Source of the DNA: a bacterium | GTDB taxonomy: Bacteria > Hinthialibacterota > Hinthialibacteria > Hinthialibacterales > Hinthialibacteraceae | NCBI GenBank assembly: GCA_963662285.2 | Contig: CAXXMV010000006.1 | Span: 1,056,001 to 1,120,000 of the forward strand | Reading direction: 5' to 3' | DNA: 64,000 bases | Part shown: positions 28,589 to 57,412 of the stretch, piece by piece | Numbering within the stretch: the stretch's first letter is position 1 | How the letters are laid out: every line of letters starts with the position of its first letter | Program-made: the position numbers and the translations under genes | Notes under the pieces: generated by a model | Seen by the model: only the letters and a program-made list of their open reading frames with translations | What the model was told of the DNA's origin: nothing | The model's database searches: none

Positions 28589-28603
28589 TTAAGGTGAATT
28601 ATC

Positions 28604-35399: not shown

Positions 35400-35594
35400 T
35401 TACTCTCAATAAATTGCTTATGTTATTTTTATGATTTCTTTGTATCATGCACCTAAGTGCAATTATCAGAATCATATTCGTTTAATATCATGTTTGATTC
35501 TCGAAAAAGACAATCTTTTCTATTTTTCTCTCTAATTATGCGCCAAATCGACGATATCAAAGCGGAACGTTGTATGATCCCAGGTATGATCTAG

Positions 35595-36683
35595 TTATTC
35601 TATATCTTCTTTTACAGGTAATCTGATAATAAAAGTAGAGCCTTTTCCCTCTTCGCTTTTGAAACTTAAATTCCCATTATGCGCTTCAATGATCCGCTTG
35701 GTTATGGCTAAACCCAAGCCCGTACCTTTTTCTCCCTTGGTGGTAAAAAATGGTTGCCAGATTTTATCCTGTATGTCTGTAGGGATTCCACATCCTGTAT
35801 CGATAATATTGATCGTAATTTCTTTTTTATTGGAATTTACTTCAATAATCACGGAACCTTCTCCGTTCATGGCGTGGGCGGCATTTCGCAATAAATTGAT
35901 TAATACTTGAATGATTCGATCCTGGTCGCAGATAAAACAAGGATCGTCAGGATTTGTTATTTCATATTGGATGTGTTTAGTTTCTGGATCGAATTCGAGA
36001 ATGCTTAAAACCGGTACAAGTAATTTAGAAACGGCAATAGATTCCTGTTTCAAGGTCTCGCACGTCTGTTTCCCATACGATTTTATTTCGTTCAGGATAG
36101 TCAATATCCGGTCTCTAGCCATAACCACCTGATTGGAGACCTTATTGATCAATTCATCGTCTGGATGCATCTGTTGAATGAGTTGCACGCCCATCAATAC
36201 ACTAAGTTGGTTACGTACTTCATGGTTGATGCCGCTAGCCACCTGACCGACGGTCGCCAGTTTTTCCAACCGCACCACATCGTCTAATAATCTCCGATTT
36301 TCAATAGTTAATTCCAAATTTTCAAGCGCCCTTTTTACCGTGATCAATAAATCATTCGGATCCCATGGTTTATTGATATAGCGATAGACGCGGCCAGTGT
36401 TTATCGCCCCGATCAAATCATCAACATCAGTAAAACCAGTAAGAATGATGCGTACAATTCCCGGACATAATTCAATACTTTTTTCAAGGAATTCAACACC
36501 GGACATTCGCGGCATGCGTTGATCGCTAACAATCAGAGAGACCTGATGGGTTTGCAACAATTCCAGTCCTTCCGCTCCGCTTAAAGCCGTCAAGACTTCA
36601 TAATCTTTTCTCAAAACGCGCCGAAGCGCATCAAGGTTATATTCTTCATCATCCACACAGAGAATCGTATGCTTGAAACTCAT
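35595..36683 (-). CDS. Hybrid receiver-histidine kinase (REC-HisKA-HATPase)
   Basis: LCVDDE, SDQRMP, KPW; HEVRNQL; NLLRNAAHAM; GTGLGL. Confidence 0.92.
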   Translation of the reverse strand: MSFKHTILCVDDEEYNLDALRRVLRKDYEVLTALSGAEGLELLQTHQVSLIVSDQRMPRMSGVEFLEKSIELCPGIVRIILTGFTDVDDLIGAINTGRVYRYINKPWDPNDLLITVKRALENLELTIENRRLLDDVVRLEKLATVGQVASGINHEVRNQLSVLMGVQLIQQMHPDDELINKVSNQVVMARDRILTILNEIKSYGKQTCETLKQESIAVSKLLVPVLSILEFDPETKHIQYEITNPDDPCFICDQDRIIQVLINLLRNAAHAMNGEGSVIIEVNSNKKEITINIIDTGCGIPTDIQDKIWQPFFTTKGEKGTGLGLAITKRIIEAHNGNLSFKSEEGKGSTFIIRLPVKEDIE

Positions 36684-36720
36684 TTTAATTTCTCCTGAAT
36701 ATAATAAAATAAAATAGAAT

Positions 36721-37305
36721 TCATTTGAATTTTTTTAATACTGTCAACAAACGGTTGATATCTACCGGTTTGATAATGAAATCGGTAGTTCCCCATTTCA
36801 AGGCTTCTTGTAAATAGTTCTTTTTCGGATTACCGGTCATAATAACCACCGGTGTTGTTGTATCGGTTTCCCTGATTATCCGGAGCGCATCCAAACCACT
36901 CATTTTTTTCATCTCGATATCCATTAAGACAAGGTCGGGTTGAACATCGTGGAATATACCTACGGCTTCCAGACCGTTGCCCGCCTCGGCCACAACATTA
37001 TAACCGTTAAGAATTAAAGTCCGCTTGATCATTTCACGGATGAAAACCACATCATCGACAATCATTATGGTGTTAATTGTTTTAGGGGATGAAATGGCCT
37101 GATCTTCATCAGGAACAACTGGCTTGGGCGCTAGAAAGGCAAGGGGTTCTTCCTGGGTTTCAACGCCCATGTGTTTGCGCCATTTTATGATTGTTTGCCG
37201 GAGATCATCGGTATCAATGATTCCGGAGTTGATCAGCACATCCGCTAATGCATATACAAATACTTGTTCAGTTTCCGAAGAAGGCTTCTCACTATTTTCA
37301 TTCAT
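36721..37305 (-). CDS. CheY-like response regulator with a short N-terminal helical domain
   Basis: IMIVDD, LMDIEM, MTG, KP; ~75-aa N-terminal extension. Confidence 0.88.
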   Translation of the reverse strand: MNENSEKPSSETEQVFVYALADVLINSGIIDTDDLRQTIIKWRKHMGVETQEEPLAFLAPKPVVPDEDQAISSPKTINTIMIVDDVVFIREMIKRTLILNGYNVVAEAGNGLEAVGIFHDVQPDLVLMDIEMKKMSGLDALRIIRETDTTTPVVIMTGNPKKNYLQEALKWGTTDFIIKPVDINRLLTVLKKFK

Positions 37306-37374
37306 GGTGACAATTTATTCTCCCTTAAAATATAGGGTAAGAGTGGTTTTCATCATAACATTCTGATTCGCCAT

Positions 37375-39456
37375 TTAAGGACGAATTGGTAAATTGAGAG
37401 TAAACAGAGCACCTTTTCCTGGTTCACTTATAACCGCTATACTACCCCCATGCTGTTCGATAATACTATATGAGATAGATAATCCTAAACCGGTTCCTTC
37501 ACCTACCGATTTTGTCGTGTAGAAAGGATCAAATATTTTCTCTTGGATATCAAGGGGGATTCCTTTGCCGTCATCACGAATTTCCACTACGGCCTTATCA
37601 TCATCCCGGTAGGTCGTGATCCAAACATTGCCCTGGCCTTCAATGGCCTGTTCTGCATTCGCTAATAGATTCAGGAAAACTTGATTGATCTGCCCAGGGG
37701 AACATTGCAGGAGAGGAATGTCGCCGTAATCTTTATGGATGGTTACATGTTCTTTGTAACGGTGGATCAGCAAATTGAGAGAACCATCGATTGCTTCGTG
37801 GATATCGTAAACTGAACGATAACTCTCATCCACGCGAGAATACTGGCGCAGATCAGCCACAATCTGCGCGATACGGTTCGAGCCATCGTCAAAAGAGCGA
37901 ATCAGTTTTTCCACATCATCTTTGGCGTAATCCAAATCCGCTTTGCGATAGGCCTCATCGAATAGGGAGCGAAGTTCATTGGGCAATTGTTCTTTTCTTT
38001 CGTATATGTCATCCACAATATTCTTATATCCAAACAAGTATTCTTTTAAGGAAGGGATGTTGCTTTTAATGAAATTGCTGGGATTATTGATTTCGTGGGC
38101 GATTCCCGCAACCAATTGCCCCAGAGAGGCCATTTTTTCCGAACGCAGCAATTGTTCCTTGGTGCGTTGAATCCGGTCATAACTTTTATATAGCATGATA
38201 AAAAGCCCGGCGGCGAATATTAAGATAAACAGGAACAACGTCATTAACCAAACGCCCGACATCTGCATGGGGACTCGAATATTAGCGGGCAAGGTTTGCA
38301 AAAAACGTTCAATGGAGTGGTATTGATCTTCATTGATAGATATGAGAAGAACGACCATTACGAAAAGTACAAATCCCTGTGTGAGAATCGGGAAGAAAAA
38401 CCAACAAGAACGGCTAATACTGAAATCCTGCATTTTTCTTTGACTTAAATTATCTCTATCTTCCATGGGATTTGATAGAAACATGAAAATCAATAAACAG
38501 TAGAGTCCGGATATTATAGCAAATGCAGCGCTTGGCCCGATTCTCTCTGGAATTTGGATATTGAGAATAATATCTGAAATTCCTATAAGACCTCCACATA
38601 AACCAGCCAGGAACAGGGTAACGGTCAATAATTCACCCTGTGGCATTTTTCGCAAGAACCCAGTTTTCGATTTCATTCCATAGAAGAGAGTTCCCCATAA
38701 AAGAACAATCAAACCTAGTAATACTGGATGGTGATCTGCTTGGATAAGATAGTATCCGAGTGCAAGCGATATGAAGATTCCTAGCCCGAATCCCAGTCGG
38801 CGCCATTTAATAGCAATCAAATATACCCACAGGCTGGAGCCAAAAACCAATAACAAGGAAGGCGTATCCACAAAATCCAAAATGCTGCTTCCCAGTAGGA
38901 TAGCCAATAGAAATAAGGTACTTAAAAGAATGTATCCTATGGAAACCGGAACGAGCGAACGTCTGACTTTCGTCTCATGGCAATGTTTCTTGGTTATTGC
39001 TGACGATCTGTTCATTAATAAAGCGGGGATCGGTAAAAGAAGACAAAAAGCAATTGAATATAAGAAAGTCAGCATACTTACGGCCAACGAAGCGGCAAGA
39101 TAATCCAAACTACTTAAACTACCGAGTATCTGAACGATCCCGATACTGTTTCCCAAAGCTCCGATAATCAGTAAGTTACGAATGACGCAATGCCAAAAAT
39201 AATCCCGATAAAACCGATCCTGTTTCGGTGACCGCCGATCAATCAAACTCGATGCTGCTTCTTTCATATCCCGAATCGAAAATTGGGTCCAGGTTAGTAA
39301 AAATCCACCTCCCAATGTCATGGTTAAAGAGGGATAGTCAATAAAAGACATAAATCCCACATCAAGAAACGCATAGCTGATTAATATCCCCACTAGCAGG
39401 ACAAGAAACAGAATAGCCAGGATAGCTGGAAAAAACCTTTGAAGCTCAGTATTCAT
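37375..39456 (-). CDS. Multi-TM histidine kinase with two tandem MotA/TolQ/ExbB-like membrane modules
   Basis: FIDYPSLTMTLGG...GALGNSIGIVQILGSL...LAVSMLTFLYS and FVDTPSLLLVFG...GLCGGLIGISDII...IGPSAAFAIISGLY; kinase motifs AHEINNP, NLLANAEQAI, GTGLGL. Confidence 0.8.
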   Translation of the reverse strand: MNTELQRFFPAILAILFLVLLVGILISYAFLDVGFMSFIDYPSLTMTLGGGFLLTWTQFSIRDMKEAASSLIDRRSPKQDRFYRDYFWHCVIRNLLIIGALGNSIGIVQILGSLSSLDYLAASLAVSMLTFLYSIAFCLLLPIPALLMNRSSAITKKHCHETKVRRSLVPVSIGYILLSTLFLLAILLGSSILDFVDTPSLLLVFGSSLWVYLIAIKWRRLGFGLGIFISLALGYYLIQADHHPVLLGLIVLLWGTLFYGMKSKTGFLRKMPQGELLTVTLFLAGLCGGLIGISDIILNIQIPERIGPSAAFAIISGLYCLLIFMFLSNPMEDRDNLSQRKMQDFSISRSCWFFFPILTQGFVLFVMVVLLISINEDQYHSIERFLQTLPANIRVPMQMSGVWLMTLFLFILIFAAGLFIMLYKSYDRIQRTKEQLLRSEKMASLGQLVAGIAHEINNPSNFIKSNIPSLKEYLFGYKNIVDDIYERKEQLPNELRSLFDEAYRKADLDYAKDDVEKLIRSFDDGSNRIAQIVADLRQYSRVDESYRSVYDIHEAIDGSLNLLIHRYKEHVTIHKDYGDIPLLQCSPGQINQVFLNLLANAEQAIEGQGNVWITTYRDDDKAVVEIRDDGKGIPLDIQEKIFDPFYTTKSVGEGTGLGLSISYSIIEQHGGSIAVISEPGKGALFTLNLPIRP

Positions 39457-39572
39457 AGGCTTTCTTTCCTTTTCAATATTTAATGATCGATAACATAAGT
39501 ATCCCTAAGCGTTAGTTGCAGCATTATTTATAGCAATATTGACAATCATTGAAATATAAAGACAATTGCATA

Positions 39573-40649
39573 TTATTCGTATTCTTTTGTAAGTTTTAAA
39601 ATCTCATCCAAGTTTTCACAAAAGAGATCAGTTAAATCTGGATCAAAATGCTTCCCTTTTTCCTCTCTTATAATTTCAATTACTTTCTCATGAGGAAAGG
39701 CTTCTTTGTAAGGCCGCTTACTGGACAGAGCATCATAAACGTCCGCAAGCGCGCATATTCGGCCAGAGAGTGGAATATCTTCCCCCTTAAGCTGCTTTGG
39801 ATATCCCTTTCCATTCCACTTTTCATGATGGGAAAGGGCGATTATTTCCCCGGTTTGGATCAATTCAGAGGCAGAATCATTCAAAATACTGGCGCCAATC
39901 GTCGTATGTTTTTTAATGATTTCATATTCATCAACTGTTAACTTAGCGGGTTTAAGAAGGATATGATCGGGAATTCCAAGTTTGCCTACATCATGCATGG
40001 GACTGGCGAGTCGTATCAATTCAACATCATTTGCAGGAAGATTGAGTTTTAGGGCTATAAACTCACAGATCAAGCTAATTCGTTGTATGTGATTCCCTGT
40101 ACATTCATCTTTATATTCGGCAGCGATCACCAAACGCCGAATAGTATCTAAATGAGCTTGATGAGATTGTCGCTGGGCTGCGACCATTTCGTCGAGCGCT
40201 TTGCGCAGTGAAGCCGTACGTTGGTCGATTTTTGCTTCGAGTTCTTTTTGATAAATTTTTATAGCATCCTGCGCTTCTTTTTGTCTCAACAAAGAAGCCG
40301 TACGAATCCGTAATTCTATTTCATCAACAGGTTTGCAGATAAAATCACTGGCCCCCGCTTGCACAGCGCGAAGTTGATCTTCTTTTGATGTATTGCCAGT
40401 TACAACGCAAATAGGGATATCACGAACATCGGCGTCTTCCCGGATTCGCCGAACTACTTCAAAACCATCCATTCCGGGCATTTGTATATCGGTTAAAACC
40501 AGATCGATATCGAGTTTTACTTTGGCTAAAGCTTCGAATCCATCCTGAGCGGTTTCCGTTTCATGCCCGTGAAAATTCAAAATCGTGGCAAGCATATCAC
40601 GCAAGGCCTGTTCGTCGTCAACAATCAAAATACGTTTGGGAGAAGCCAT
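39573..40649 (-). CDS. Response regulator with HD-GYP c-di-GMP phosphodiesterase domain (RpfG-like)
   Basis: REC (ILIVDD, TDIQMP, KP); HDVGK; HHEKWNGKGYP; DVYDALSSKRPYK. Confidence 0.93.
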   Translation of the reverse strand: MASPKRILIVDDEQALRDMLATILNFHGHETETAQDGFEALAKVKLDIDLVLTDIQMPGMDGFEVVRRIREDADVRDIPICVVTGNTSKEDQLRAVQAGASDFICKPVDEIELRIRTASLLRQKEAQDAIKIYQKELEAKIDQRTASLRKALDEMVAAQRQSHQAHLDTIRRLVIAAEYKDECTGNHIQRISLICEFIALKLNLPANDVELIRLASPMHDVGKLGIPDHILLKPAKLTVDEYEIIKKHTTIGASILNDSASELIQTGEIIALSHHEKWNGKGYPKQLKGEDIPLSGRICALADVYDALSSKRPYKEAFPHEKVIEIIREEKGKHFDPDLTDLFCENLDEILKLTKEYE

Positions 40650-40911
40650 GAAATCCTCGGAATCGCTTTAATATAATGGATTATAGAATTCACGCCAATT
40701 GAGTTGCAGCGCCCCTTTTTATTTGTACAAAACTAACGGTCAAACCTTTGCGTAATGCAAATCAAGGGTGGATATCAATTTTTGGACTGCAATTAATTGC
40801 TGTCGAGAGATAGTCGCTCGAATTCCATGCTTAGATTCTCCCATAAAAAAATATGCTTGTCTATTGATCATATACCAATCTACTTCTGGTAATCGCTCTT
40901 ATTATGTTTTT

Positions 40912-42105
40912 TTAATTCGACTTAATTGGCAGTGACACAATAAATTTCGACCCTTTACCCATTTCGCTCTCCACCGCGATTCTTCCCTCATGTTGTTCAA
41001 TAATGCTGTAAGAAAGAGAAAGGCCCAGGCCAGTACCTGAACCAACCGGTTTTGTTGTAAAGAAGGGATCAAATATCTTGGATAGATTCTCTTTAGGAAT
41101 ACCAACGCCATTATCACGGATAGTAATTGTGATATTATTATCCTGATATCCGGTAAGCACCCAAATATCACCTCCGCTCTGATTAAATTCTATAGCGTTC
41201 TTGAGGATGTTAAAAAAAACTTGATTGATTTGACCGGGAGAACAGCGAGTCAGCGGGAATGATTTATATTCTTTATGTATGTTTATTTGATCTTTATAGA
41301 GAGGATAAAGCAATGTAAGCGACGAATCGATTGCTTCTTGAATATTGAAGGAAGAATAGTAGTCATCATCGACTTTGGAATATAGACGAAGATTATACAG
41401 GATACTGGCTATGCGATTTGAACCTTCATCAAAAGAGTCAAGAATTTTTTTTATGTCATCTAAATCATAATCGATCTCTTTCATCTTTTGCGGCAGATTT
41501 ATTTTTTTTAATACATCTTCAGGAATCTTTTGTTGATTATCAACAATAATTTTTACAAAAGAAAACAAATCCTGAATATCTTCCTTAAGCGGTTGTATAT
41601 TGCTTTTAATAAAGTTAACCGGATTATTAATCTCATGACACAATCCCGCAACAAGTTGCCCCAGAGACGCCATTTTGTCGGTTTGTATCAATTGCTGCTT
41701 TCGTAATTGGATCTGTTCTTCCATGCTTTTACGTTCTAGAACCCGGTTCAGGACTTGCAACAGATAATCCAAATCCAACGGTTTGGTAACAAAATCCGAT
41801 GCGCCGTTTTTCATGGCTTCAATAGCGCGTTCAACTGTCCCATAGGCTGTCATTATCACAACCGGGATATGAATTTTACGTTTTTGCAGTTCTGCTAACA
41901 GTTCAAGGCCATTGATTTCAGGCATCATGATATCAGAAATAATAATCGACGGCGTGCAGCTTTCTAATTTCGTTAATGCATCGGATCCATTGGATGCCGT
42001 GATTGTTTCAAAACCTTCCAACTCAAGAAAATCGCAGAGACTCAAACGGATATCTTCTTCATCGTCAATCACAAGCAATGGAATTTTATGTTCGATATCT
42101 CTCAT
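40912..42105 (-). CDS. Hybrid receiver-histidine kinase
   Basis: LVIDDE, SDIMMP, KP; [19 protein letters not shown]; GTGLGL. Confidence 0.92.
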
Positions 42106-42108
42106 GGT

Positions 42109-42477: not shown

Positions 42478-42486
42478 AATTACTCT

Positions 42487-44088
42487 CTATTTAGGTTGAA
42501 TGGGTAAATTCAAAGTAAAAGTTGATCCCTTGCCCAATTCGCTTTCAACTGCCAGCGATCCTTCATGCATTTCTACTAGTTCTTTGACGATCGAAAGGCC
42601 CAGTCCGCTGCCGATGGCGCATTTTTGCGATTCCGCCGTACGGTAGAAACGTTCCCAGATTCTCAATCGATCCTGGGCTGACATACCAATTCCCGTATCA
42701 GTTATAGATAAAACAAGGCGATGGTTATCATTTCTCGTTAGGTTGATAATTACACGGCCATTTTCCGGTGTGTATTTGATCGCATTCCCTATCAATTCTC
42801 CCACAATGCGTTCCATTTTACCAGCATCAACCTTAATCTTGTACGAATCATCCTGGATTACTTTTTGCAGAGTGATTTTCTTTTGATCGGCGGCGGATTG
42901 GTTTTCTTTCACCACATTCTTAACCAGTGTATCGAAGGGCGTTTCGGTTTTTTCAAGAATCATCCTGCCGGACTCTATGCGATTCAGATCAAGAACATCA
43001 TTAATCAGATTGGTCAGACGGTTGACGGCTCCTTGTGCGCGATCCAGGACGTGTTGTTGTTTATCGGTCAGGCCTCCGCCCACACCGCGCATGAGATTAT
43101 CCAGATTGAGTTTTATGGTGGTCAGCGGCGTGCGCAGGTCATGCGAAGCTTGCGAAACAAAGACCGATTTCATCCGGTCCAGTTCCATCAGTTTTTCATT
43201 GGCCTGGACGAGTTCTTCATTGGCCTCATGCAATTCAGCCGTCCGCCGCTCGACCCGGTCTTCCAGTTCTTCACGCGCCTTGATCAAAGCGGTATCCCGT
43301 TCCTGTATCTGATCCAGCATATCGTTGAACACGTGAATTAACTGGCCGATTTCATCATTCCCTTGCGATTGAGCGCGAATGGAATAATTGCCTTGGTTGG
43401 AAATACCTTCCGCTGTTCTTGATAAAAGCAATACCGGTTCTGTAATCATACGCATCAAGCGCATTGCCAACAAATATGCTAATGTCAAAGATACAATTAA
43501 CACAAGTATGGTTATAAAAATAATATTAATTAATCGTCTGTTTAATTCTGTCAAATCACAGATGATTTCCATTTTGCCTTTGTGAATTGACGATCCATCC
43601 GAATAATCAAATAATTTTGATACTTGAATATAATCACGGGAGAATCGATAGTCGTGATCTTCGTGATCCAAGGGGGGGATATTATATACAGGTGTTTTTA
43701 CTAATTCTTTTAAGTCTTCAACGATTTCGGGCTTAAAATCCTGAATCGGCGAATTGATACTTTCTCCCTCAGTAAGCGCCCGGTCATATAAAGCAAAAAT
43801 TTCACGATCTTCACGAATGTATAGTCGGGCGGCAATGATTCTTTTATCTTTTCCAAGTTTCTCTAGAATATCGCATGCATCCTTTGGTACATTAAATTCA
43901 AGAGGCGCTTCGCAAAGAGAACACATAATTTCCGCTTGGATTAATAATCCGGATGCCATTTCCTTCTTAATCACTTCTTTTTCATAAATAATAAACATTA
44001 AAAAAGCCAGCAGCGCTGCCAGGCTGCATGATAAGATTACGATTAACGAGAGTTTTCGTTTTATGGACCAATCGCGTATGGGTCTCAT
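42487..44088 (-). CDS. Sensor histidine kinase with CHASE8-like (YfiN-type) periplasmic domain and HAMP
   Basis: SIKRKL-TM; QAEIMCSLCEAPLEFN...ACDILEKL...IIAARLY; HAMP (GNYSIRA...DEIGQLIHVFNDML); SHDLRTPL; GSGLGL; directly after the YfiR-like gene. Confidence 0.88.
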   Translation of the reverse strand: MRPIRDWSIKRKLSLIVILSCSLAALLAFLMFIIYEKEVIKKEMASGLLIQAEIMCSLCEAPLEFNVPKDACDILEKLGKDKRIIAARLYIREDREIFALYDRALTEGESINSPIQDFKPEIVEDLKELVKTPVYNIPPLDHEDHDYRFSRDYIQVSKLFDYSDGSSIHKGKMEIICDLTELNRRLINIIFITILVLIVSLTLAYLLAMRLMRMITEPVLLLSRTAEGISNQGNYSIRAQSQGNDEIGQLIHVFNDMLDQIQERDTALIKAREELEDRVERRTAELHEANEELVQANEKLMELDRMKSVFVSQASHDLRTPLTTIKLNLDNLMRGVGGGLTDKQQHVLDRAQGAVNRLTNLINDVLDLNRIESGRMILEKTETPFDTLVKNVVKENQSAADQKKITLQKVIQDDSYKIKVDAGKMERIVGELIGNAIKYTPENGRVIINLTRNDNHRLVLSITDTGIGMSAQDRLRIWERFYRTAESQKCAIGSGLGLSIVKELVEMHEGSLAVESELGKGSTFTLNLPIQPK

Positions 44089-44098
44089 TTTATCACCT

Positions 44099-44716
44099 TC
44101 ACTCTCCCTTGTTTTTAGGCAATGCAGATTTCAATAAACTGGAATTTACTTTGAAATTCGATCGTTTGGCCGCAGCGAGATTAAAGATATAGCGGATGCG
44201 TTTCTTTTCAACCTTAAATTCAATATGTCCATTCGCATCATCAGTAAAGCCTTCAAAATCGCCAATGTATAACGTGGGGAAACCTTTCGATTTTTCATTA
44301 AGCGCTTGTAAACCACTGCGATCTTTGCCGGTTATTTTTTTCAGAACATCCTCGGAAGGAATCAACAAAATATGACAAGTCCCGAAATCGTTCAATGAAG
44401 TAACCTTCTTGGTTATGATTTTACGATTTTTTGATATTTTAGCTTTCAAGTTTTTGTCTCCATTGATCAGTTTCGCGGAGTCATTAATCAACTTCAAATA
44501 TGTATTTGCCTTGGAATCATTTCCTAACAGACCGATTACAATTTCCGGCTTATCCGCAGAAAAGGCTTCTGCCGGCCATTCAATGTATTTAATGAAATTG
44601 AATATATAGGAACTCTTTATTTCAAAAGGAGTGCGCTCCTGCGAATACCCGGAGGATGCAGTAAGTACCGCAATCACTATTAATCCTATGTGAGATAATA
44701 ACCTGTGTTTCATCAT
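44099..44716 (-). CDS. YfiR / DUF4154-family periplasmic regulator
   Basis: Signal peptide; EIKSSYIFNFIKYIEWP; CHILLI; IEF...RIRYIFNLAAAKRSNFKVNSSLLK. Confidence 0.88.
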   Translation of the reverse strand: MMKHRLLSHIGLIVIAVLTASSGYSQERTPFEIKSSYIFNFIKYIEWPAEAFSADKPEIVIGLLGNDSKANTYLKLINDSAKLINGDKNLKAKISKNRKIITKKVTSLNDFGTCHILLIPSEDVLKKITGKDRSGLQALNEKSKGFPTLYIGDFEGFTDDANGHIEFKVEKKRIRYIFNLAAAKRSNFKVNSSLLKSALPKNKGE

Positions 44717-44744
44717 TGTTTTAGAAATTTATCCTAAAGATCCC

Positions 44745-46823: not shown

Positions 46824-46868
46824 AATTCATTCTCCTGACATTGCTTCATTTTACTATTACAAAAATCA

Positions 46869-48926: not shown

Positions 48927-48967
48927 TCATTCTCCACAATTTCGCTGACTTACATTACAAAAAAAAA

Positions 48968-51040
48968 TCAAAACCGATACGTCAGTTTGACGTACACGCC
49001 GCGCTCGACCTCCGAGGGTTTTCTATACACCGCCTTTGCCTCATGCGTTTGATCGTCCAGCAAATTCGTTCCGACCAGACTTATTTCCAAATTGTTTTTT
49101 GGTTTCCAACCCAAGCGGATATCGAGTCTTCCGTGTTGGGGTATTCCCCATCCTTCTATTTCATCGATAAAGTATAAGAAGGCGTCCAATTTAACGTCTT
49201 TCGTTAGATCGAAATAAGATTGAATGGATGCCTGATGGTGAGGTGATGAATTTTCTAGAGAATAATAATAAAAATCATTCGAGTTGTTCTTATGATGGAA
49301 CTGAATATCTAATACGGAATAACTGGCCATTAACTTCCAAAAATCGGTAATTTGTTCCGTCATGGACAGTTCCGCACCATACGTTTCTCCATTGATATTA
49401 TTACCCCAATATTCATAAACAACATAATGGGGAAGGGGATCCATATAGTAAGAAACGCGATCGTAATCCGCATCTAGAGTGATGAAATCATAGATCGTCG
49501 TGTAAAATGCCGTTAGATCGAACGATAGATTTCTTGTAGCCCGATATCGTTGACCTAATTCATACGATAGGATACTTTCAGACTTTAATCGTTCGCTATA
49601 ATTGACATACAATAACATGGGAATCCCATCCGGCGCAGACGTTGTAAGATTCGGCCACGATGAATCATAATTAAGGGGAAAATAATGTTGGGCGGAACGA
49701 GTGATAGAGGCCCAAATTGTATACTTTTCTGTTGGTGTATATACTAATTTGGCGCTGGGTTGGTAATCGAAATCAGAATAGTCGCTATATTGAATCTGAA
49801 TGCCGAGTGATAGTTTAAGTAGGTCTTCTGCAATAGAATAATTATCTTCGATAAAAACGCTTCCCGTTTGATCGTTGGCGTGACTGGAATTATATACGAT
49901 CGTTCGATCGGTCATATCGTCCATCGTAAGCTGATATCCACTTCCCACGATAAATTCATGATTGGAAAAGGGAGTAAACTCGTACTGAACGTTCGTTTTA
50001 ATATCGTGGTAATTGAACTTGGAAACAAAGTCATTGTCCAATAAAAAGTAGTTATAATAAGTATGCCATTTAATCTTAGAATCATCGTCTAATGTACGTT
50101 CCCAGAGAACTTGCAAATCAAGGCCCCTTTTATCGTATTCATATCGAGATTTAACAGGGAAAATTTCGGGAAGATCAATTTCTGGAATATACCAGGCGTA
50201 CCACACGTCGTTTTGAAATATCTCGCCTTGGAACGTAACATCGTCCTTTTCTGAAGGTGCCCAATCGATGCGAAAGCCGCTTTTGGCGTTAGACCAATCA
50301 TCGACGGAATCCTCTCCATTCGGAAATTTGAAACTATCGGCGTCACGATAAATCCCATATATACGATAATAAGCATCGTCCCCCATTTTCCCGCCGTATC
50401 GGAACACGCTTTTATACAAATCCGTCCCGGCGACGCCGGAAATCAAACCGCCTTGTGTGTCTTTCGCATGTTTTGTGATGATATTGATGACGCCGTTACC
50501 GGAATTCGTTCCCCAAAGCGTGCCGCCCGGACCTCGAATGATTTCTATACGTTCGATGTCCTCTAATGGATAATCAAGAATGTCCCAAAACATTCCGCCC
50601 ATTACTAAATCGTTTGTTTCGCGTCCGTCAAGTAAAATAAGTAATTCTGTAGTGTGCTCGGTTGCCAATCCTCGGGATCCGATTACCCATGTGTTTGAAT
50701 CCCCTCTTCCAACGAACAAACCGGGAACCATGCGCAGGAGATCGGGGATGTTGGTCGCGGCGGAGCGGGAGATATCCGTGGCTGTTATGACATAGGCGGC
50801 GGCGGGGGTTTCCCATACTTTCTGTGGCGTCTTGGATGCGAGCGAGATATATTCTTGAACGATGATTTCCGACAGTTCATCGATATCTTTCAGAAGCAGT
50901 TCCTTCATGCCGCTTGATGAGTCCTCTTCGACTGCATCAGCAGGAAGAGTGAAAAGCATGAATAGAATCGCCAGGCAAGCGATTTGCCGCAATAGCTGGT
51001 TAACGCTAAATAGAGAATTTTTTCGTATGGATTCATACAT
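48968..51040 (-). CDS. TonB-dependent receptor, array copy 4
   Basis: Same plug and barrel motifs; ends KLTYRF. Confidence 0.92.
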   Translation of the reverse strand: MYESIRKNSLFSVNQLLRQIACLAILFMLFTLPADAVEEDSSSGMKELLLKDIDELSEIIVQEYISLASKTPQKVWETPAAAYVITATDISRSAATNIPDLLRMVPGLFVGRGDSNTWVIGSRGLATEHTTELLILLDGRETNDLVMGGMFWDILDYPLEDIERIEIIRGPGGTLWGTNSGNGVINIITKHAKDTQGGLISGVAGTDLYKSVFRYGGKMGDDAYYRIYGIYRDADSFKFPNGEDSVDDWSNAKSGFRIDWAPSEKDDVTFQGEIFQNDVWYAWYIPEIDLPEIFPVKSRYEYDKRGLDLQVLWERTLDDDSKIKWHTYYNYFLLDNDFVSKFNYHDIKTNVQYEFTPFSNHEFIVGSGYQLTMDDMTDRTIVYNSSHANDQTGSVFIEDNYSIAEDLLKLSLGIQIQYSDYSDFDYQPSAKLVYTPTEKYTIWASITRSAQHYFPLNYDSSWPNLTTSAPDGIPMLLYVNYSERLKSESILSYELGQRYRATRNLSFDLTAFYTTIYDFITLDADYDRVSYYMDPLPHYVVYEYWGNNINGETYGAELSMTEQITDFWKLMASYSVLDIQFHHKNNSNDFYYYSLENSSPHHQASIQSYFDLTKDVKLDAFLYFIDEIEGWGIPQHGRLDIRLGWKPKNNLEISLVGTNLLDDQTHEAKAVYRKPSEVERGVYVKLTYRF

Positions 51041-51085
51041 AATTCATTCTCCCGTCATTGCTTCATTTCACTATATCAAAAATCA

Positions 51086-53161
51086 TCAAAACCGATATGT
51101 CAGTTTGCCGTATATGCCCCGCTCGACTTCGGTGTAGGCTGTATACATCCCATTCGCTTCGTGCGTCTGACTATCAAGTAAATTGGTCCCAACAAGGCTT
51201 ATTTCCAATTGTTTAGATGGTTCCCAGCCCAACCGCACATCAAGTCGTCCATGCGGTGGGATTCCCCAATTATTGATTTCATCAACAAAGTAATAATTGG
51301 CATCAAATTGGATATCTTTGGTGATATTGAGATAGGACTGTAATTTAAATTGATGGTGAGGAGAGGCGTCTTCGAGAAAATAAAAAACGATATCTGTTGA
51401 ATTTGGTTTACGATGTAATTGAATATCGATTGCGGAGTAACTGGCCATGAGTTTCCAGTAATCGGTAATTTGCGCGTTGGCAGCCAGTTCTACTCCATAG
51501 GTTTCTCCATCAATATTATTTCCTGGATAGCCATATAAAACAATATGAGGAATTGGATCGGTGAATGAAATTTGATTATTCCAATCAATATCGGCTGTAC
51601 AATGATCATCAATAAAGTTATAAAAAACTGAAAGATCGAGAGACAGGTTACTAAATGCCTGAAGCCTTTGCCCGATTTCAAAGGTGAGAATGCTTTCAGA
51701 ATCCGCTTTTCCATCATAACTAAAATGAACCCGCATGGGGGGCGTCCCTTGTCCATATAGATCATAAAATGTCAAATAAGGCCAACTACATTCACTATGC
51801 GCCCGGTAATAATGTTGAACTGACCGAGTAATGGATGCCCAGATTGTATATTGTTCATATGGAGTATAGGCTAATTTTGCGCTGGGTTGATAATCGAAAC
51901 CGGAATAATCGCTATATTGGAATTGAGAACCGTAATAAAAATTTAGTTTGTCATCAATGATTGTGTAATTATCCTGGATAAAGGCAGTAAATGTTTGATC
52001 GTTTGCGCTTTGAGGTCTATATTCCAAAAAACCATCAACAGTATCATCTGATATTATCCGGTACCCGCTTCCGATAACGAAATCATGATTTGAAAAAGGC
52101 GTAAACTGGTATTGATAATCTGTTTTAAATGTATGGTAATTTAGATTCGATATAAAATCATTGTCCAATGAAAAATAGTCGTAATAAGTAAGCCATTTCA
52201 TCTTGGAACCGTTATTAAATGTGCGGTTCCATTGAACCATCAAATCCAGTCTATCTTTATCCTTAATATATCGATCTTTCATAGGATCGAATTGGGGATT
52301 GGCTTTTCCTGTCCAATTAAACCAAGCGTCATCTTGATATACTCCGCCTTGAAAAGTAAATTCATCTTGTTCAGAAGGCTCCCAATCGACTCGGAAACCC
52401 GCTTTTCCTAACGCCCAATCATCGACCGACTCTTGTCCATTAACATCCTTAAAGGCGTCAACATCTTTATATGCCCCAAAAATACGAAAAAAAGCATCTT
52501 CTCCCATTTTCCCACCATACCGGAACACGCTTTTATATAAATCAGTACCAACCAAGCCTGATAGAAGTCCTCCTTGAGTGTCTTTTGAATGCTTTGTAAT
52601 TATGTTAATAACGCCGTTTCCGGAATTCGTTCCCCAAAGCGTACCTCCCGGGCCACGAATAATTTCGATCCTTTCAATATCCTCCAATGGATAATCCTGA
52701 ATACTCCATAAAACTCCACCCCAATTTGTAAAGTTCGCTTGGCGGCCATCAATCAATACAAGCAAATCAACTGCGTATTCATTTGCCAATCCCCTAGATC
52801 CAACGATCCATGTACTCGAATCAGCTTGTCCGACAAACAAGCCGGGAACCATGCGTAATAGATCGGGGATGTTAGTGGCGGCGGAGCGGGAGATATCCGT
52901 GGCTGTTATGACATAGGCGGCGGCGGGGGTTTCCCATACTTTCTGTGGCGTCTTGGATGCGAGCGAGATATATTCTTGAACGATGATTTCCGACAGTTCG
53001 TCGATATCTTTAAGAAGAAGTTCTTTTAGTCCACTGGATGCGTCCTCTTCGACGGCATCAGCAGGAAGAGTGAAAAGCATGAATAGAATTGCCAGGCAAG
53101 CAATTTGCCGCAATAGTCGGTTAACACTAGATCGAGAATTTTTTCGTATGGATTCATACAT
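51086..53161 (-). CDS. TonB-dependent receptor, array copy 3
   Basis: Same plug and barrel motifs; ends KLTYRF. Confidence 0.92.
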   Translation of the reverse strand: MYESIRKNSRSSVNRLLRQIACLAILFMLFTLPADAVEEDASSGLKELLLKDIDELSEIIVQEYISLASKTPQKVWETPAAAYVITATDISRSAATNIPDLLRMVPGLFVGQADSSTWIVGSRGLANEYAVDLLVLIDGRQANFTNWGGVLWSIQDYPLEDIERIEIIRGPGGTLWGTNSGNGVINIITKHSKDTQGGLLSGLVGTDLYKSVFRYGGKMGEDAFFRIFGAYKDVDAFKDVNGQESVDDWALGKAGFRVDWEPSEQDEFTFQGGVYQDDAWFNWTGKANPQFDPMKDRYIKDKDRLDLMVQWNRTFNNGSKMKWLTYYDYFSLDNDFISNLNYHTFKTDYQYQFTPFSNHDFVIGSGYRIISDDTVDGFLEYRPQSANDQTFTAFIQDNYTIIDDKLNFYYGSQFQYSDYSGFDYQPSAKLAYTPYEQYTIWASITRSVQHYYRAHSECSWPYLTFYDLYGQGTPPMRVHFSYDGKADSESILTFEIGQRLQAFSNLSLDLSVFYNFIDDHCTADIDWNNQISFTDPIPHIVLYGYPGNNIDGETYGVELAANAQITDYWKLMASYSAIDIQLHRKPNSTDIVFYFLEDASPHHQFKLQSYLNITKDIQFDANYYFVDEINNWGIPPHGRLDVRLGWEPSKQLEISLVGTNLLDSQTHEANGMYTAYTEVERGIYGKLTYRF
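51120..51295. repeat. 176-bp direct repeat, copy B (3' end of receptor copy 3)
   Basis: Reads identical to 46903..47078. Confidence 0.85.
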
Positions 53162-53206
53162 AATTCATTCTCCCGTCATTGCTTGATTTTGCTATATCAA
53201 AAATCA

Positions 53207-55285
53207 TCAAAACCGATATGTCAGTTTGCCGTATACGCCCCGCTCGGCTTCGGTATATTTCGTGTATATACCGGTGGCTTCATGCGTTTGATCGTTAAGC
53301 AAATTCTTTCCAACGACGCTCACTTCCAACTTATCGGTTGGCTTCCATCCAAGTCTGAGATCGAGCCTTCCATGCGTAGGAATTCTCCAATTGTTAATTT
53401 CATCGATCCAATAATAAGATGCATCAAACTGAATATCTTTGGTGAGATCGAAATAGGAATTAATTTTGAACTGATGATGGGGAGAGGCGTCTTCTAGAGA
53501 ATAAGAAAAGATATCCATAGAATTATGTTTACGGTGCAATTGTATATCCAAGGCCGAGTAACTGGCCATCAGTTTCCAAGAATCTGTGATTTGCGTGTTA
53601 AGCGCCAGTTCTGCTCCATAAGTTTCTCCATCAATATTATTGCCTACATATGAATCTACTATATAATGAATAATCGGATCATTGAATAGAATGGGATGTT
53701 CAAAATCCGGATCGACTGTCATATTATCTTTAATCATATTGTAAAATGTGTTGAGTTCGATGGATAAGTTCTTATTCGCTTGAAGCCTTTGGCCGATTTC
53801 GAAAGATAAAATATTTTCTGAACCCGCATGACCTTCATAACTTAAACGCATAAGCATAGGGATGTTTGAACCGGGGAAATAATCGGCTAAATTAGTATAA
53901 CTTTCCTCATTTTCTCCCCGGTAATAATGTTGGGCGGATCGAGTAATGGCCGCCCAAAGCGTATACATTTTTGTTGGAGTATAAGTTAATTTTACGCTGG
54001 GCTGATAATCAAAACCGGAATAATCGCTGTATTGGAGTTGAGTGCCTAAAGATAGGTTTAGCTTTTCTTCAATAATTGTGTAGTTATCTTGAATGAAAGC
54101 TGTGAATGTTTGATCGTTGGCGCTTGGCGGCTCGAATTCACACCATAAATCCGGTTCAACTTCATCCGATACGAGCCGATATCCGCTTCCCACAATGAAT
54201 TCATGATTTGGAAAAGGATCGAACTGGTATTGAAAATCCGTTTTCAAAGTCTGATATTTCCAATATGCGAGAAAATCATTTTCTAGTGAAAAATAGTCGT
54301 AATAAGAAAGCCATTTCATCTTGGATCCGTCTTCAAAAGTATGGTCCCATTGAACCTGCAAATCGAAACCTTTCTTATCTTTTTCGTATCTCTCTTTGAC
54401 AGGATATAATTCTGAAGGAAGATAATTTGGAGTATGCCAATTGAACCAAACGTCATCTTGAAACGCGTCTCCTTGAAATGTAAGTTCATCCTGCTGAGAA
54501 AACTGCCAATCGATTCGAAATCCCGCCTTAGCTAACGACCAATCATCTACTGAATGGCTTCCGTCCACATCGTTGAATGAATCGACGTCTTTATATGTTC
54601 CGTACAGTCTGTAAAAAGCATCGTCGCCCATTTTCCCGCCATATCGGAATGTCCCTTTATACAAATCCGTCCCTACAATACCGGAAAGAAGACCCCCCTG
54701 TGTGTCTCTGGCATGTTTTGTGATGATATTGATGACGCCGTTACCGGAATTGGTACCCCAAAGCGTACCCCCCGGTCCCCGGATGATTTCAATTCGCTCG
54801 ATGTCTTCCAATGGATAATCTTGTACATTCCAAAATATCCCTCCCCAAATATAATTATTCACTTGGCGGCCATCAATCAATACCAACAAATCAACCGCGT
54901 ATTCGTTCGCCAAGCCTCGGGTACCAACAATCCATGTACTTGAATCTGCGTTGCCGACAAACAAACCGGGTACCATACGCAGAAGATCGGGGATATTTGT
55001 AGCAGCGGAGCGGGAGATATCCGTAGCGGTGATGACATAAGCGGCGGCGGGCGTTTCCCAGACCTTCTCCGGCCTCTTGGAGGCAAGCGAGATATATTCT
55101 TGAACGATGATATCCCCCAGTTCGTCGATATCTTTAAGAAGAAGTTCTTTTAGTCCACTGGATGCGTCCTCTTCGACGGCATCAACAGGAAGAGTGAACA
55201 GCATGAATAGAATCGCCAGGCAAGCGATTTGCCGCAATAGCTGGTTAACGCTAAATAGAGAATTTTTTCGTATGGATTCATACAT
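53207..55285 (-). CDS. TonB-dependent receptor, array copy 2
   Basis: Start moved to 55285 (MYESIRK, RBS GGAG) by comparison with copies 3 and 4; ends KLTYRF. Confidence 0.92.
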   Translation of the reverse strand: MYESIRKNSLFSVNQLLRQIACLAILFMLFTLPVDAVEEDASSGLKELLLKDIDELGDIIVQEYISLASKRPEKVWETPAAAYVITATDISRSAATNIPDLLRMVPGLFVGNADSSTWIVGTRGLANEYAVDLLVLIDGRQVNNYIWGGIFWNVQDYPLEDIERIEIIRGPGGTLWGTNSGNGVINIITKHARDTQGGLLSGIVGTDLYKGTFRYGGKMGDDAFYRLYGTYKDVDSFNDVDGSHSVDDWSLAKAGFRIDWQFSQQDELTFQGDAFQDDVWFNWHTPNYLPSELYPVKERYEKDKKGFDLQVQWDHTFEDGSKMKWLSYYDYFSLENDFLAYWKYQTLKTDFQYQFDPFPNHEFIVGSGYRLVSDEVEPDLWCEFEPPSANDQTFTAFIQDNYTIIEEKLNLSLGTQLQYSDYSGFDYQPSVKLTYTPTKMYTLWAAITRSAQHYYRGENEESYTNLADYFPGSNIPMLMRLSYEGHAGSENILSFEIGQRLQANKNLSIELNTFYNMIKDNMTVDPDFEHPILFNDPIIHYIVDSYVGNNIDGETYGAELALNTQITDSWKLMASYSALDIQLHRKHNSMDIFSYSLEDASPHHQFKINSYFDLTKDIQFDASYYWIDEINNWRIPTHGRLDLRLGWKPTDKLEVSVVGKNLLNDQTHEATGIYTKYTEAERGVYGKLTYRF

Positions 55286-55330
55286 AATTGATTCTCCCGT
55301 CATTGCTTCATTTTACTATTACAAAAATCC

Positions 55331-57412
55331 TCAAAACCGATACGTCAGTTTGCCGTATACGCCGCGCGGGACTTCGGAAGCGAAATGCCAATATGCTGAC
55401 AATTCTTCTCGATGGCGGTCATCCAAAATATTATGCGCTGCAATGCTCATTTCCAAATTTTGGGTAGGTTTCCAACCTAATCGCATATCGAAGCGAGTAT
55501 AAGCTGGAATATCTTGACGATTATCGACAAAATAGAGAGAGGCGTCTAATTCCAAATCCCACGGAAGGTCAAGATAGGAATGGAATTTAATTTGATTGTG
55601 AGGGAAATTAGTCTCTCTCCCATCATCATCTCCTAAAAGAAAGCCGCCGGGCGCCATATGCCATTCAAGATCCAATGCTGCGTAACTGGCTAATAAACGC
55701 CAATAATCAGTTACCTTTGAATCAATAACAAACTCCACGCCGTATGTCTCACCATCCATACTATTTGAATATGTATATTGTAATTCATAATATGGGGGTG
55801 GGCCTGCACGTAAAACCGGATCGAGAGTATCCGCTGTCCACAGATCATTATCATTTTTATAAAATGCCGTCAAATCAAACGAGAATCGTTCATTTAGCCG
55901 AATTCGTTGACCGATTTCAAACGATTGAAAATTCTCGGATTTCTTCATTGGGTAGTCAGATCCAAAAAAATAAATCGGAGGCAAAGCAGGATCATAGGGA
56001 TTTTCAAAACATAATATACCATAATACGCTCCCTCTTCTGATCGGCTGGGAATTCTTACGGCGCGTGAAACAGAAGCCCAGGTTGTATAGTTTTGATTGG
56101 GTGTATACGCCAGCCTTGCCGATGGTTGAAACTCAAAGCCAGTGTAATCATTATGCTCAAGTTTAGCGCCTATAGTAAAATCAATATCTTCGCAAATGTT
56201 GATCGTATCTTGTAAAAAGGTCGAAATGAGTTGCGGCGTATCAGGTTTTGGATGAAATTCGATAAATTTATTAGTATAATCATCAAATAAAACACGGTAA
56301 TTAATGCCTATGATGGCATCGTGATGTGGGAAAGGACTAAAGCGATACTGGCCATCAAGATCAAAAATATGAGATTCGAAGCCAAACATTATATCAAAAT
56401 CGTACGCGAAATAATCGTAATAGATCTGTAATTTTAAGTCGGAGTCGTCTTGAAGGCTCTTATCCCAATTCAATAAAAAACTAACGGCTTCCTGATTCAC
56501 GCTAACGCCATGATAATCAATTCGATAAGGTGGTCCAATCACTGGACGTGTTGTGGAATTATGATTCAAACCGTTTAATGCGTTTACCTGAAACATAAAT
56601 GCGTCGTCATCAGTAGGATTCCAATCAAATCTAAATCCGGCTTGTTCCATGTTCCAATCATCATGTGCATCATTACCTAACTCATCTTTGAATTCGTCCA
56701 CATCCCTGTATTTACCGTAAACGCGATAATACAAGTCCTTGTTAATTGCTCCTCCATATCGTACGCCGCCTCCAATTTCGTTAGTTCCTCCCAATATGTT
56801 GAGAAATCCACCTTGAGTTTCTTTGGCATGCTTTGTAATAATATTTATAACGCCATTTACTGCATTTGACCCCCATAAAGTCGCGCCCGGTCCACGAATG
56901 ACTTCAATTTGTTCGATATCTTCCAAAATGTAGTCTTGCGCGTTCCAAAAAGTGCCTGATAGTACAGGACTATACACAGAACGCCCATCTATCATGACCA
57001 ATAAATCTCTTGTTAAGAGCCATGTGTAACCACGCGAGCCGATCGTCCATGTATTTGCGTTCATATTACTGACGAGAAAGCCGGGAACCATACGCAAAAG
57101 ATCAGGTATGGTAGTGATACCTGAGCGGCGAATTTCCGTCGAAGAAATGACATACGCAGCAGCAGGCGTTCCCCACAACTTATCTTCTTTCTTGGAGGCG
57201 CTATAGATATAGACAGGAATATCCCCCAGTTCATCGATATCGGTCAGAAGAAGTTCCTTTAAACTCTCATCAGAAGAACTTTGAGATTCTTGAGCAAAAC
57301 ATTGAAAGAGTAACATGGATGATAATGAAAAGAGAATAAAAAAATATAATACAGAATATCGAATTGATGCCGCGTAAAAAGACATCTCATTCTGTTTTTT
57401 TGAATTGAGCAT
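55331..57412 (-). CDS. TonB-dependent receptor, array copy 1 (most divergent)
   Basis: Likely start 57412 (GGGAGAAGAGAT-ATG); SASKK...TPAAAYVISSTEIRRSG; IEQIEVIRGPGATLWG; ends KLTYRF. Confidence 0.92.
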   Translation of the reverse strand: MLNSKKQNEMSFYAASIRYSVLYFFILFSLSSMLLFQCFAQESQSSSDESLKELLLTDIDELGDIPVYIYSASKKEDKLWGTPAAAYVISSTEIRRSGITTIPDLLRMVPGFLVSNMNANTWTIGSRGYTWLLTRDLLVMIDGRSVYSPVLSGTFWNAQDYILEDIEQIEVIRGPGATLWGSNAVNGVINIITKHAKETQGGFLNILGGTNEIGGGVRYGGAINKDLYYRVYGKYRDVDEFKDELGNDAHDDWNMEQAGFRFDWNPTDDDAFMFQVNALNGLNHNSTTRPVIGPPYRIDYHGVSVNQEAVSFLLNWDKSLQDDSDLKLQIYYDYFAYDFDIMFGFESHIFDLDGQYRFSPFPHHDAIIGINYRVLFDDYTNKFIEFHPKPDTPQLISTFLQDTINICEDIDFTIGAKLEHNDYTGFEFQPSARLAYTPNQNYTTWASVSRAVRIPSRSEEGAYYGILCFENPYDPALPPIYFFGSDYPMKKSENFQSFEIGQRIRLNERFSFDLTAFYKNDNDLWTADTLDPVLRAGPPPYYELQYTYSNSMDGETYGVEFVIDSKVTDYWRLLASYAALDLEWHMAPGGFLLGDDDGRETNFPHNQIKFHSYLDLPWDLELDASLYFVDNRQDIPAYTRFDMRLGWKPTQNLEMSIAAHNILDDRHREELSAYWHFASEVPRGVYGKLTYRF

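Follow-up and report, generated by a model that had tools for sequence, protein, structure and literature searches.

Is a run of six genes for TonB-dependent receptors (TBDRs), followed by a gene for a YfiR-like periplasmic protein and by a sensor kinase gene, a new signalling system or a form of one that is already known? The question is raised by a stretch of 64,000 nucleotides (the window) from a bacterium of the family Hinthialibacteraceae (GenBank assembly GCA_963662285.2, contig CAXXMV010000006.1, positions 1,056,001 to 1,120,000), in which 14 minus-strand open reading frames (ORFs) lie head to tail from position 57412 to position 35595. They encode six receptors (TBDR1 to TBDR6), the YfiR-like protein, the histidine kinase HK1, the receiver protein REC1 and the receiver-kinase REC-HK2, as well as four further proteins designated REC-HD-GYP, kinase 3, REC2 and REC-HK4 (Table 1). 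In the YfiBNR system of Pseudomonas, the outer-membrane lipoprotein YfiB sequesters YfiR, which is otherwise an inhibitor of the membrane cyclase YfiN. The original prediction, made from the nucleotide sequence alone, regarded all 14 genes as a candidate new system. The analysis presented here identified the locus as an expanded and divergent copy of a widespread TBDR/YfiR-like/CHASE8 kinase cassette.

The NCBIfam database already contains named models for the three protein types of this cassette, namely NF053590 (TOL_0244 family TonB-dependent receptor), NF053591 (TOL_0243 family YfiR-like periplasmic protein) and NF053592 (sensor histidine kinase, YfiR-like protein-associated), so that the claim of a new system had to be abandoned. 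NF053590 is by far the best model for all six receptors of the window, with 441.5-547.2 bits at a cut-off of 645. The YfiR-like protein has its best NCBIfam match in NF053591 (75.8 bits, E 3.5e-21, cut-off 125), and NF053592 provides the only match of HK1 to a YfiR-linked sensor domain (137.2 bits, E 6e-40, cut-off 194). Relatives from the same phylum include members of the trio families above the cut-offs. By the curators' thresholds, the window locus is accordingly classified as a divergent relative of the trio and not as a member of it.

The sample of the analysis consisted of 79 plus 16 loci, 35 genomes of the phylum and three further genomes, the 35 genomes constituting the GTDB phylum of the window. 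DUF4154, the Pfam family of the YfiR-like protein, was detected in 13 of the 41 relatives' genomes searched (the window's own genome being counted) and at 17 places. For each of the 16 foreign places, a surrounding region of at most 20 kb was mapped with hidden Markov models (HMMs) built from the window proteins. The order TBDR, YfiR-like gene and sensor kinase gene was present in 13 of these loci, although one of them (L029) showed a weak TBDR match only. Two loci (L022, L026) contain the TBDR and YfiR-like genes alone and one (L030) the YfiR-like and sensor genes alone; pairs of TBDR and YfiR-like genes therefore persist without an adjacent kinase gene.

For the comparison across phyla, a TBDR alignment was searched against one genome per species, and the best 79 loci of 483 relatives were mapped; since this survey was seeded with the receptor, pairs of YfiR-like and kinase genes lacking a TBDR could not be counted by it. 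The 79 loci originate from Nitrospinota, Nitrospirota, Planctomycetota, Acidobacteriota, Verrucomicrobiota, Thermodesulfobacteriota, Bdellovibrionota and several proteobacterial groups. A YfiR-like gene was found in 65 of them, with a TBDR gene directly upstream and on the same strand in 61 and another order in four, whereas the remaining 14 lack a YfiR-like gene, three of these being cut off right after the TBDR gene. The 61 ordered pairs are followed by a sensor gene (49 loci), a contig edge (5), a gene on the opposite strand (6) or an unrelated gene (1). Single triads of this kind had been expected to exist elsewhere, and they do. Calculated from approximate gene starts, the median distance from the TBDR stop to the YfiR-like start is -7.5 nt (74 pairs) and that from the YfiR-like stop to the sensor start -1 nt (61 pairs). 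The maps of L034 and L072 duplicate those of L031 and L026. Variant gene orders were also seen: a family TBDR gene is located after the sensor kinase gene in L042, L065, L066 and L087, instead of or besides the one before the YfiR-like gene, and L046 and L083 carry the YfiR-like gene followed by the TBDR gene.

The proteins encoded next to the YfiR-like genes were classified by their output domains. The 66 genes directly downstream of YfiR-like genes, HK1 included, specify HisKA in 60 cases, REC in 48, Hpt in 34, a fused GGDEF-EAL in eight and a methyl-accepting chemotaxis protein (MCP) domain in one; CHASE8 was matched at E<=1e-4 in 61 of the 65 foreign genes of this set. The 51 genes downstream of the sensors yielded REC (28), GGDEF/EAL (6) and HDOD (4), and no DNA-binding family with at least two members occurred among the matches listed for them. 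Judging from this domain content, the outputs of the cassette would seldom be transcriptional. HK1 itself ends in HisKA-HATPase without a GGDEF match in Pfam, which agrees with the view that a kinase takes the place of the cyclase output; this substitution is not new, however, since Malone et al. 2012 (PMC3375315) describe YfiR/YfiN pairs without YfiB and with kinase, HPT, GGDEF-EAL or MCP outputs.

The window protein has the fold of YfiR and belongs to its family. It matches DUF4154 with 81.7 bits (cut-off 24.9), and a profile of 17 YfiR-like proteins matches the PDB entry of YfiR at E 8.8e-8. Its structural model (predicted local distance difference test, pLDDT, 92.1) has its best Foldseek matches in YfiR chains (E 1.3e-8, TM 0.71-0.76 on the target), followed by small substrate-binding proteins and single lobes of ABC substrate-binding proteins (5z6v, 6k1y, 3lft with L-Trp, CD0873). 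A word-based homolog search with the YfiR-like protein retrieved the query only. Aligned to F162 of P. aeruginosa YfiR, within an IRF/IRY-x-I-N stretch, is an aromatic residue, which is Y in the window protein and F in the majority of relatives, and the sensors carry a near-invariant Phe (F65) within an AALxF-like stretch. The F162 region and the sensor Phe are conserved YfiR-YfiN contact sites according to Malone et al. (PMC3375315), and the YfiR-YfiN interface thus appears to be kept, as far as aligned residues can tell. The periplasmic domain of YfiN is now classed as CHASE8 (PMC8085984). Of the two domain assignments of the original prediction that called for an HMM search, DUF4154 was clearly recovered, whereas CHASE8 in HK1 remained below the Pfam cut-off of 27, with 21.2 bits over the full length and 22.9 bits when the N-terminus was searched by itself. 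Finally, YfiR of P. aeruginosa is reported to perform disulfide-based redox sensing; this switch is inapplicable to the window protein because it contains a single Cys.

The feature that sets the locus apart is the number of its receptors. The genome of the window contains six tandem TBDR genes of the family and only one DUF4154 gene, whereas the number of tandem TBDR genes before the YfiR-like gene elsewhere is one in 56 loci, two in four loci and four in one locus (L075). The array of six is the largest among the loci sampled, the largest other array in the same phylum comprising two copies, and the six-fold input had rightly been singled out as the unusual part. The L075 genome contains one further copy besides its four tandem ones, and the six family TBDRs of the L079 genome are all dispersed. 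The six-to-one layout of the window also contrasts with genomes in which whole cassettes have been multiplied.

The paralogy of the six receptors, as originally proposed, is borne out by the identity matrix: TBDR2-6 are 62-72% identical among themselves, and TBDR1 is 41-44% identical to them. In a quick maximum-likelihood tree of 46 TBDR sequences with SH-aLRT (Shimodaira-Hasegawa-like approximate likelihood ratio test) support, all six fall into one clade with L033 and two copies of L031 (support 100), in which TBDR1 forms the first branch and TBDR2-6 constitute a group (89) with the L031 pair as its sister (99). These five copies therefore arose in the lineage of the window. The arrays of L075 (four copies), L098 (two) and L055 (two) are each monophyletic, and tandem expansion of TBDR genes is thus deduced from the tree to have occurred repeatedly. 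The closest foreign relative of the TBDR2-6/L031 clade, L033:1512-3641 (48% identity to TBDR1, HMM score 1000), is not followed by a YfiR-like gene. In TBDR2, 3, 4 and 6, the spacer and the first approximately 315 nt are 88-93% identical, whereas the rest of the genes is 49-76% identical (junctions in window positions 44700-55420). Such homogenised junctions suggest recombination, gene conversion or unequal crossing-over between the repeats.

All six receptors (685-698 aa) consist of Plug and TonB_dep_Rec barrel domains in Pfam. The AlphaFold model of TBDR6 (pLDDT 87.5) shows a plug and a 22-strand barrel if residues 451-489 are counted as one long extracellular loop, and with this count every periplasmic turn comprises 2-5 residues. 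Along with the predicted TonB-box region and the genes for TonB and ExbB in the genome, these elements qualify the proteins as putative TonB-dependent transporters. The best Foldseek matches of the model are PirA, Cir, FepA, ChuA and BtuB at 14-18% identity, and a ligand class could not be inferred from such generic transporter folds. The mean pairwise identity among TBDR2-6 is highest in the plug (0.85) and in the segment between signal peptide and plug (0.79), intermediate in the strands (0.71) and low in the extracellular loops overall (0.52), dropping to 0.35, 0.28, 0.34 and 0.35 in loops L3, L5, L7 and L8. This pattern is consistent with receptors that share an inner face and have diversified in ligand binding, and it is in line with the proposal that different cues are conveyed to one YfiR.

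On this basis, a mechanism can be outlined in which we infer every binding and signalling step, the observations behind it being domain content, synteny, the relations among the paralogs and the fold and family of the YfiR-like protein. The YfiR-like protein would be located on the CHASE8-type sensor of HK1 in the periplasm and hold the kinase in one signalling state, comparable to YfiR and YfiN. A ligand-bound TBDR would expose a periplasmic face formed by the N-terminal/TonB-box region and the plug, and this face would capture the YfiR-like protein, thereby taking the role of YfiB in YfiBNR and switching HK1. Phosphate from HK1 would then be passed to REC1 and REC-HK2, which would represent the split form of the hybrid kinase-REC-Hpt proteins of most other cassettes. 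The end point is probably a second messenger or a behavioural response rather than transcription, with the neighbouring REC-HD-GYP protein as a possible target. In the five young paralogs, the plug and the N-terminus have been kept and the extracellular loops have diverged, and therefore several ligands could act via one YfiR-like protein and one kinase. That ligand-bound receptors capture the YfiR-like protein and release the YfiN-type kinase HK1 is a reasonable possibility, which we place somewhat short of an even chance. More tentative still is the general proposition that TBDRs without a dedicated signalling domain can serve as trans-envelope transducers by ligand- and TonB-dependent capture of a YfiR-like inhibitor from a CHASE8 kinase, the six loop-diversified receptors forming a many-to-one array.

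The contact between receptor and YfiR-like protein that is central to this mechanism was addressed by complex prediction, as had been suggested along with the original prediction. TBDR6 (residues 37-692) and the YfiR-like protein (residues 26-205) were modelled with separate alignments and three controls, resulting in a score of 0.47 (runs of 0.47, 0.48 and 0.43) that stands well above the 0.00 of the best control but is rated as 'weak support' and comes without an interface. The runs agreed in at least 78% of the contacts, with a partner pLDDT of at least 80. In the calibration, 116 of 157 solved complexes and two of 215 mismatched pairs reached the mark. Recall of a TBDR-YfiR complex is an unlikely source of the score because the solved structures matching the YfiR-like model contain YfiR alone or with YfiB. 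Taken with the strong synteny, the score gives a mild push towards a contact between TBDR and YfiR-like protein.

Several observations weigh against capture by the receptors. In the calibration, only 18 of the 157 solved complexes reached the mark with a score of 0.60 or less, together with both passing mismatches, and a score of 0.47 lies in a band where a positive call is wrong in most cases, save for pairs with a high prior likelihood. With plug, barrel and TonB-box region, the receptors have the appearance of complete transporters, and strong conservation of the plug is also expected from transport alone. No STN domain was matched in the six TBDRs at E<=0.01 in Pfam, and no extra signalling domain either. 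The periplasmic barrel turns were not supported as a conserved docking face, since their 29 residues have a mean identity of only 0.51 among TBDR2-6. A special N-terminal signalling motif was rejected: the N-terminal family motif LSLEELMNIEV..VTSVSK (window form DIDELGDIIVQEYISLASK) follows the same consensus in 19 family TBDRs that lack a YfiR-like neighbour as in 81 non-window TBDRs that have one (87 with the six of the window). Moreover, the CHASE8 match of HK1 lies below its cut-off, as do all eight trio proteins of the window in NCBIfam, and no experimental study of the trio, or of any member of the cassette, was found in the literature searched.

The same features of the receptors lead to an alternative in which the TBDRs are ordinary TonB-driven importers and HK1 is switched not by contact with the receptor but by periplasmic binding of the imported compound, or of a moiety (for instance a metal) shared by six related compounds, to the YfiR-like protein or the CHASE8 sensor. 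The complete plug, barrel and TonB-box region and the likeness to Cir, PirA, FepA, ChuA and BtuB speak for it, as do the TonB and ExbB genes of the genome and the resemblance of the YfiR-like model to small substrate-binding proteins and ABC lobes after YfiR. Adjacency of the TBDR and YfiR-like genes fits a transporter and its periplasmic binder equally well, and TOL_0244, the namesake TBDR, increased sevenfold in a proteome on n-C28 alkane and was interpreted as an uptake protein in the only paper found on a namesake gene (PMC6304351). On the other hand, one small binder would have to recognise the ligands of six receptors with strongly diverged loops, an inner-membrane transporter is missing from the locus, and the complex score, weak as it is, favours contact; we regard import followed by sensing as rather doubtful. 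Even less probable, in our estimation, is that receptors and kinase are independent neighbours, with the TBDRs as a nutrient-uptake array and the YfiR-like protein and HK1 as a YfiR/YfiN-type envelope-stress sensor that merely belongs to the same operon or regulates its expression. According to PMC3375315, YfiR/YfiN pairs of many species function in the absence of an outer-membrane partner. In addition, 14 of the 79 seeded loci lack a YfiR-like gene, and family TBDRs outnumber DUF4154 genes by 10 to 2 in genome G011 and by 8 to 3 in genome G009, which means that many family TBDRs are without an adjacent YfiR-like gene. In 61 of the 79 loci, which come from many phyla, the TBDR gene nevertheless directly precedes the YfiR-like gene and the two almost abut, an arrangement that is hard to explain without a shared function. 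A DNA-binding regulator is neither present in the block of the window nor common in the other cassettes, and transcriptional control of the TBDRs by the HK1 pathway is therefore not evident.

A further view concerns the extent of the unit: the 14 genes would make up a single integrated system, with HK1, kinases 2-4 and the receivers as a phosphorelay ending at the HD-GYP phosphodiesterase. We consider this view unlikely. It is favoured by the common orientation of the genes without an opposing gene in between and by the recurrence of cyclic di-GMP domains in other cassettes, including fused GGDEF-EAL proteins in 8 of 66 cases, GGDEF/EAL further downstream in 6 of 51 and REC-HD-GYP-like genes right after the sensor in L071. 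REC-HD-GYP of the window has the motifs HDVGK and GKGYP and matches HD_5 with 109.5 bits, and is thus a predicted phosphodiesterase. The orthologous loci L031 and L032, whose TBDRs score 1025-1098 bits against TBDR6, and L034 argue for a smaller unit, however: all three show the order of two TBDR genes, YfiR-like gene, sensor kinase, receiver and receiver-kinase, after which unrelated genes follow and the REC-HD-GYP gene is absent. Kinase 3, REC2 and REC-HK4 occur as a three-gene cluster of their own in L122, on a contig other than that of the orthologous cassette of the same genome, and kinase 3 is found without these two partners in L120 and L121. Gaps of 262 bp before REC-HD-GYP and of 116 bp before kinase 3 separate the parts in the window. 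Gene order and content therefore mark the 14-gene block as composite, in which the predicted core unit is TBDR1-6, the YfiR-like protein, HK1, REC1 and REC-HK2 and the genes after REC-HK2 lie outside the conserved unit.

The features of the block are compiled in Table 1.

Table 1. Genes of the 14-gene block and the probable boundary of the cassette (positions in the window)
Feature	Position	Strand	Evidence
TBDR1, older paralog	55331..57412	-	Pfam Plug + barrel; NF053590 547.2 bits (best score among the six); 41-44% identity to TBDR2-6
TBDR2, young paralog	53207..55303	-	Pfam Plug + barrel; NF053590 472.1 bits; identity matrix; tree
TBDR3, young paralog	51086..53161	-	Pfam Plug + barrel; NF053590 447.8 bits; identity matrix; tree
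TBDR4, young paralog	48968..51040	-	Pfam Plug + barrel; NF053590 451.7 bits; identity matrix; tree
TBDR5, young paralog, signal peptide sequence of its own	46869..48926	-	Pfam Plug + barrel; NF053590 441.5 bits
TBDR6, copy adjoining the YfiR-like gene	44745..46823	-	Pfam Plug + barrel; NF053590 447.8 bits; AlphaFold model
YfiR-like periplasmic protein (DUF4154), 205 aa, signal peptide, single Cys	44099..44716	-	Pfam; NF053591 75.8 bits
HK1, 533 aa: transmembrane segment, periplasmic YfiN-type (CHASE8-like) sensor, transmembrane segment, HAMP, HisKA, HATPase	42487..44088	-	Pfam; NF053592 137.2 bits
REC1, stand-alone receiver, 122 aa	42109..42477	-	Pfam Response_reg 100 bits; kept after HK1 in L031, L032, L034
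REC-HK2 (REC-HisKA-HATPase), last gene common with orthologous loci	40912..42105	-	Pfam; locus maps L031, L032, L034
Intergenic gap, 262 bp, probable unit boundary	40650..40911		Gap table
REC-HD-GYP response regulator	39573..40649	-	Pfam HD_5 109.5 bits + REC; NF053512 196.7 bits (cut-off 400)
Kinase 3, 693 aa: N-terminal membrane region of ~430 aa (two MotA/ExbB-related halves) + HisKA-HATPase	37375..39456	-	Pfam; comparison with small ORFs
REC2, receiver with 77-aa N-terminal extension	36721..37305	-	Pfam; kept after kinase 3 in L122
REC-HK4 (REC-HATPase)	35595..36683	-	Pfam; L122 ortholog 499 bits

All 14 co-oriented genes were recovered at the positions originally given and on the minus strand, with domain calls that proved correct. 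The intergenic gaps, in order from TBDR1, measure 27, 45, 45, 41, 45, 28, 10, 9, 3, 262, 116, 69 and 37 bp; the earlier values of 28 bp before the YfiR-like gene, 10 bp before HK1 and 41-45 bp within TBDR2-6 are correct, but TBDR1 and TBDR2 are separated by 27 bp, and the gaps of 262 and 116 bp had gone unmentioned. A GGGAGAA motif is located 6 nt 5' of the ATG of TBDR1 at 57412. Consistent with the initial description of the locus, Pfam searches at E<=1e-5 detected no TonB, ExbB/D, ABC transporter, SusD, ECF (extracytoplasmic function) sigma or anti-sigma protein among the 22 other ORFs of the window, six of which are without any Pfam match; elsewhere in the genome there are three matches to TonB_C and seven to MotA_ExbB. 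A promoter/terminator scan of positions 35000-45000 gave no excess over shuffled sequences (29 versus a mean of 27.9, and 10 versus 8.9). Rfam yielded nothing at E<=1 in positions 35000-58600, the 262-bp gap included, and hence no riboswitch before TBDR1.

Kinase 3 had been described as 'MotA-like', a designation that a direct Pfam search does not sustain (MotA_ExbB, PF01618, 16 bits, E 0.01, cut-off 22.9) but that intermediate small ORFs support. The two halves of its membrane region each correspond to one member of a pair of neighbouring small ORFs located elsewhere in this genome and in related ones. Small ORFs of the window's genome that share 35-36% identity with the first half pass MotA_ExbB with 49.4 and 37.8 bits; the kinase 3 ortholog of L121 reaches 21.3 bits. 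A word-based search with the N-terminus of kinase 3 retrieved the query only, and the ESM Atlas contained no usable match. By these similarities, the membrane region resembles two neighbouring small MotA/ExbB-related ORFs that have been fused to a histidine kinase, and it may represent a MotA-like family of sensor modules for two-component systems. Unfused pairs of MotA/ExbB-related ORFs are present elsewhere in the same genome (L123:7934-8929; L124:6203-7505), the L123 pair adjoining genes for a REC protein and a kinase.

Further genes of the window were noted in passing. A fusion of SulP permease, STAS and cyclic-nucleotide-binding domains is encoded divergently on the plus strand (58283-60523), 870 bp upstream of TBDR1. 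The flagellar genes at 25568-31333 on the plus strand are unusually long, specifying a 1006-aa FlgK-like protein and a 909-aa flagellin-like protein with Flagellin_IN motifs. A minus-strand ORF of 1145 aa (7355-10792) has no Pfam match at E<=1e-5 and adjoins an RND efflux operon (OEP, AcrB, HlyD; 11058-16813).

The TBDR/YfiR-like/CHASE8 kinase cassette is distributed over many phyla and already catalogued. If the receptor controls the kinase via the YfiR-like protein, the cassette would represent an undescribed route for signals from the surface to the cytoplasm and a further type of TBDR signalling beside the FecA/anti-sigma type, and the many-to-one array of the window would integrate several surface cues. 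The window locus provides a natural experiment, with six receptors of conserved plug and diverged ligand loops and a single YfiR-like gene in the genome; by virtue of this six-to-one layout, receptor-specific inputs and the common relay can be separated genetically or by reconstitution.

In comparison with known systems, the window shares with the trio defined by NCBIfam the three protein types, the gene order and the tight spacing (28 and 10 bp), but contains six TBDR genes instead of one, and its kinase is non-hybrid, with REC and REC-kinase encoded by separate genes. It resembles the YfiBNR system (TpbB/DgcN) of P. aeruginosa and E. coli in that a DUF4154/YfiR gene adjoins the gene of a HAMP sensor with a putative YfiN-type (CHASE8-like) periplasmic domain, in that the aromatic contact residues are kept and in that the predicted operon also includes a gene for an outer-membrane protein. 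It differs from YfiBNR by its histidine kinase output in place of GGDEF, by the single Cys of the YfiR-like protein and by the absence of YfiB, an OmpA/Pal-like lipoprotein, from the 14 genes and the 22 flanking ORFs, with TBDRs found in its place. Unlike transducers of the FecA/FpvA type, the TBDRs of the window are devoid of an STN match in Pfam and are not accompanied by an ECF sigma or anti-sigma gene in the window ORFs scanned; the relay would here consist of a soluble periplasmic protein and a kinase.

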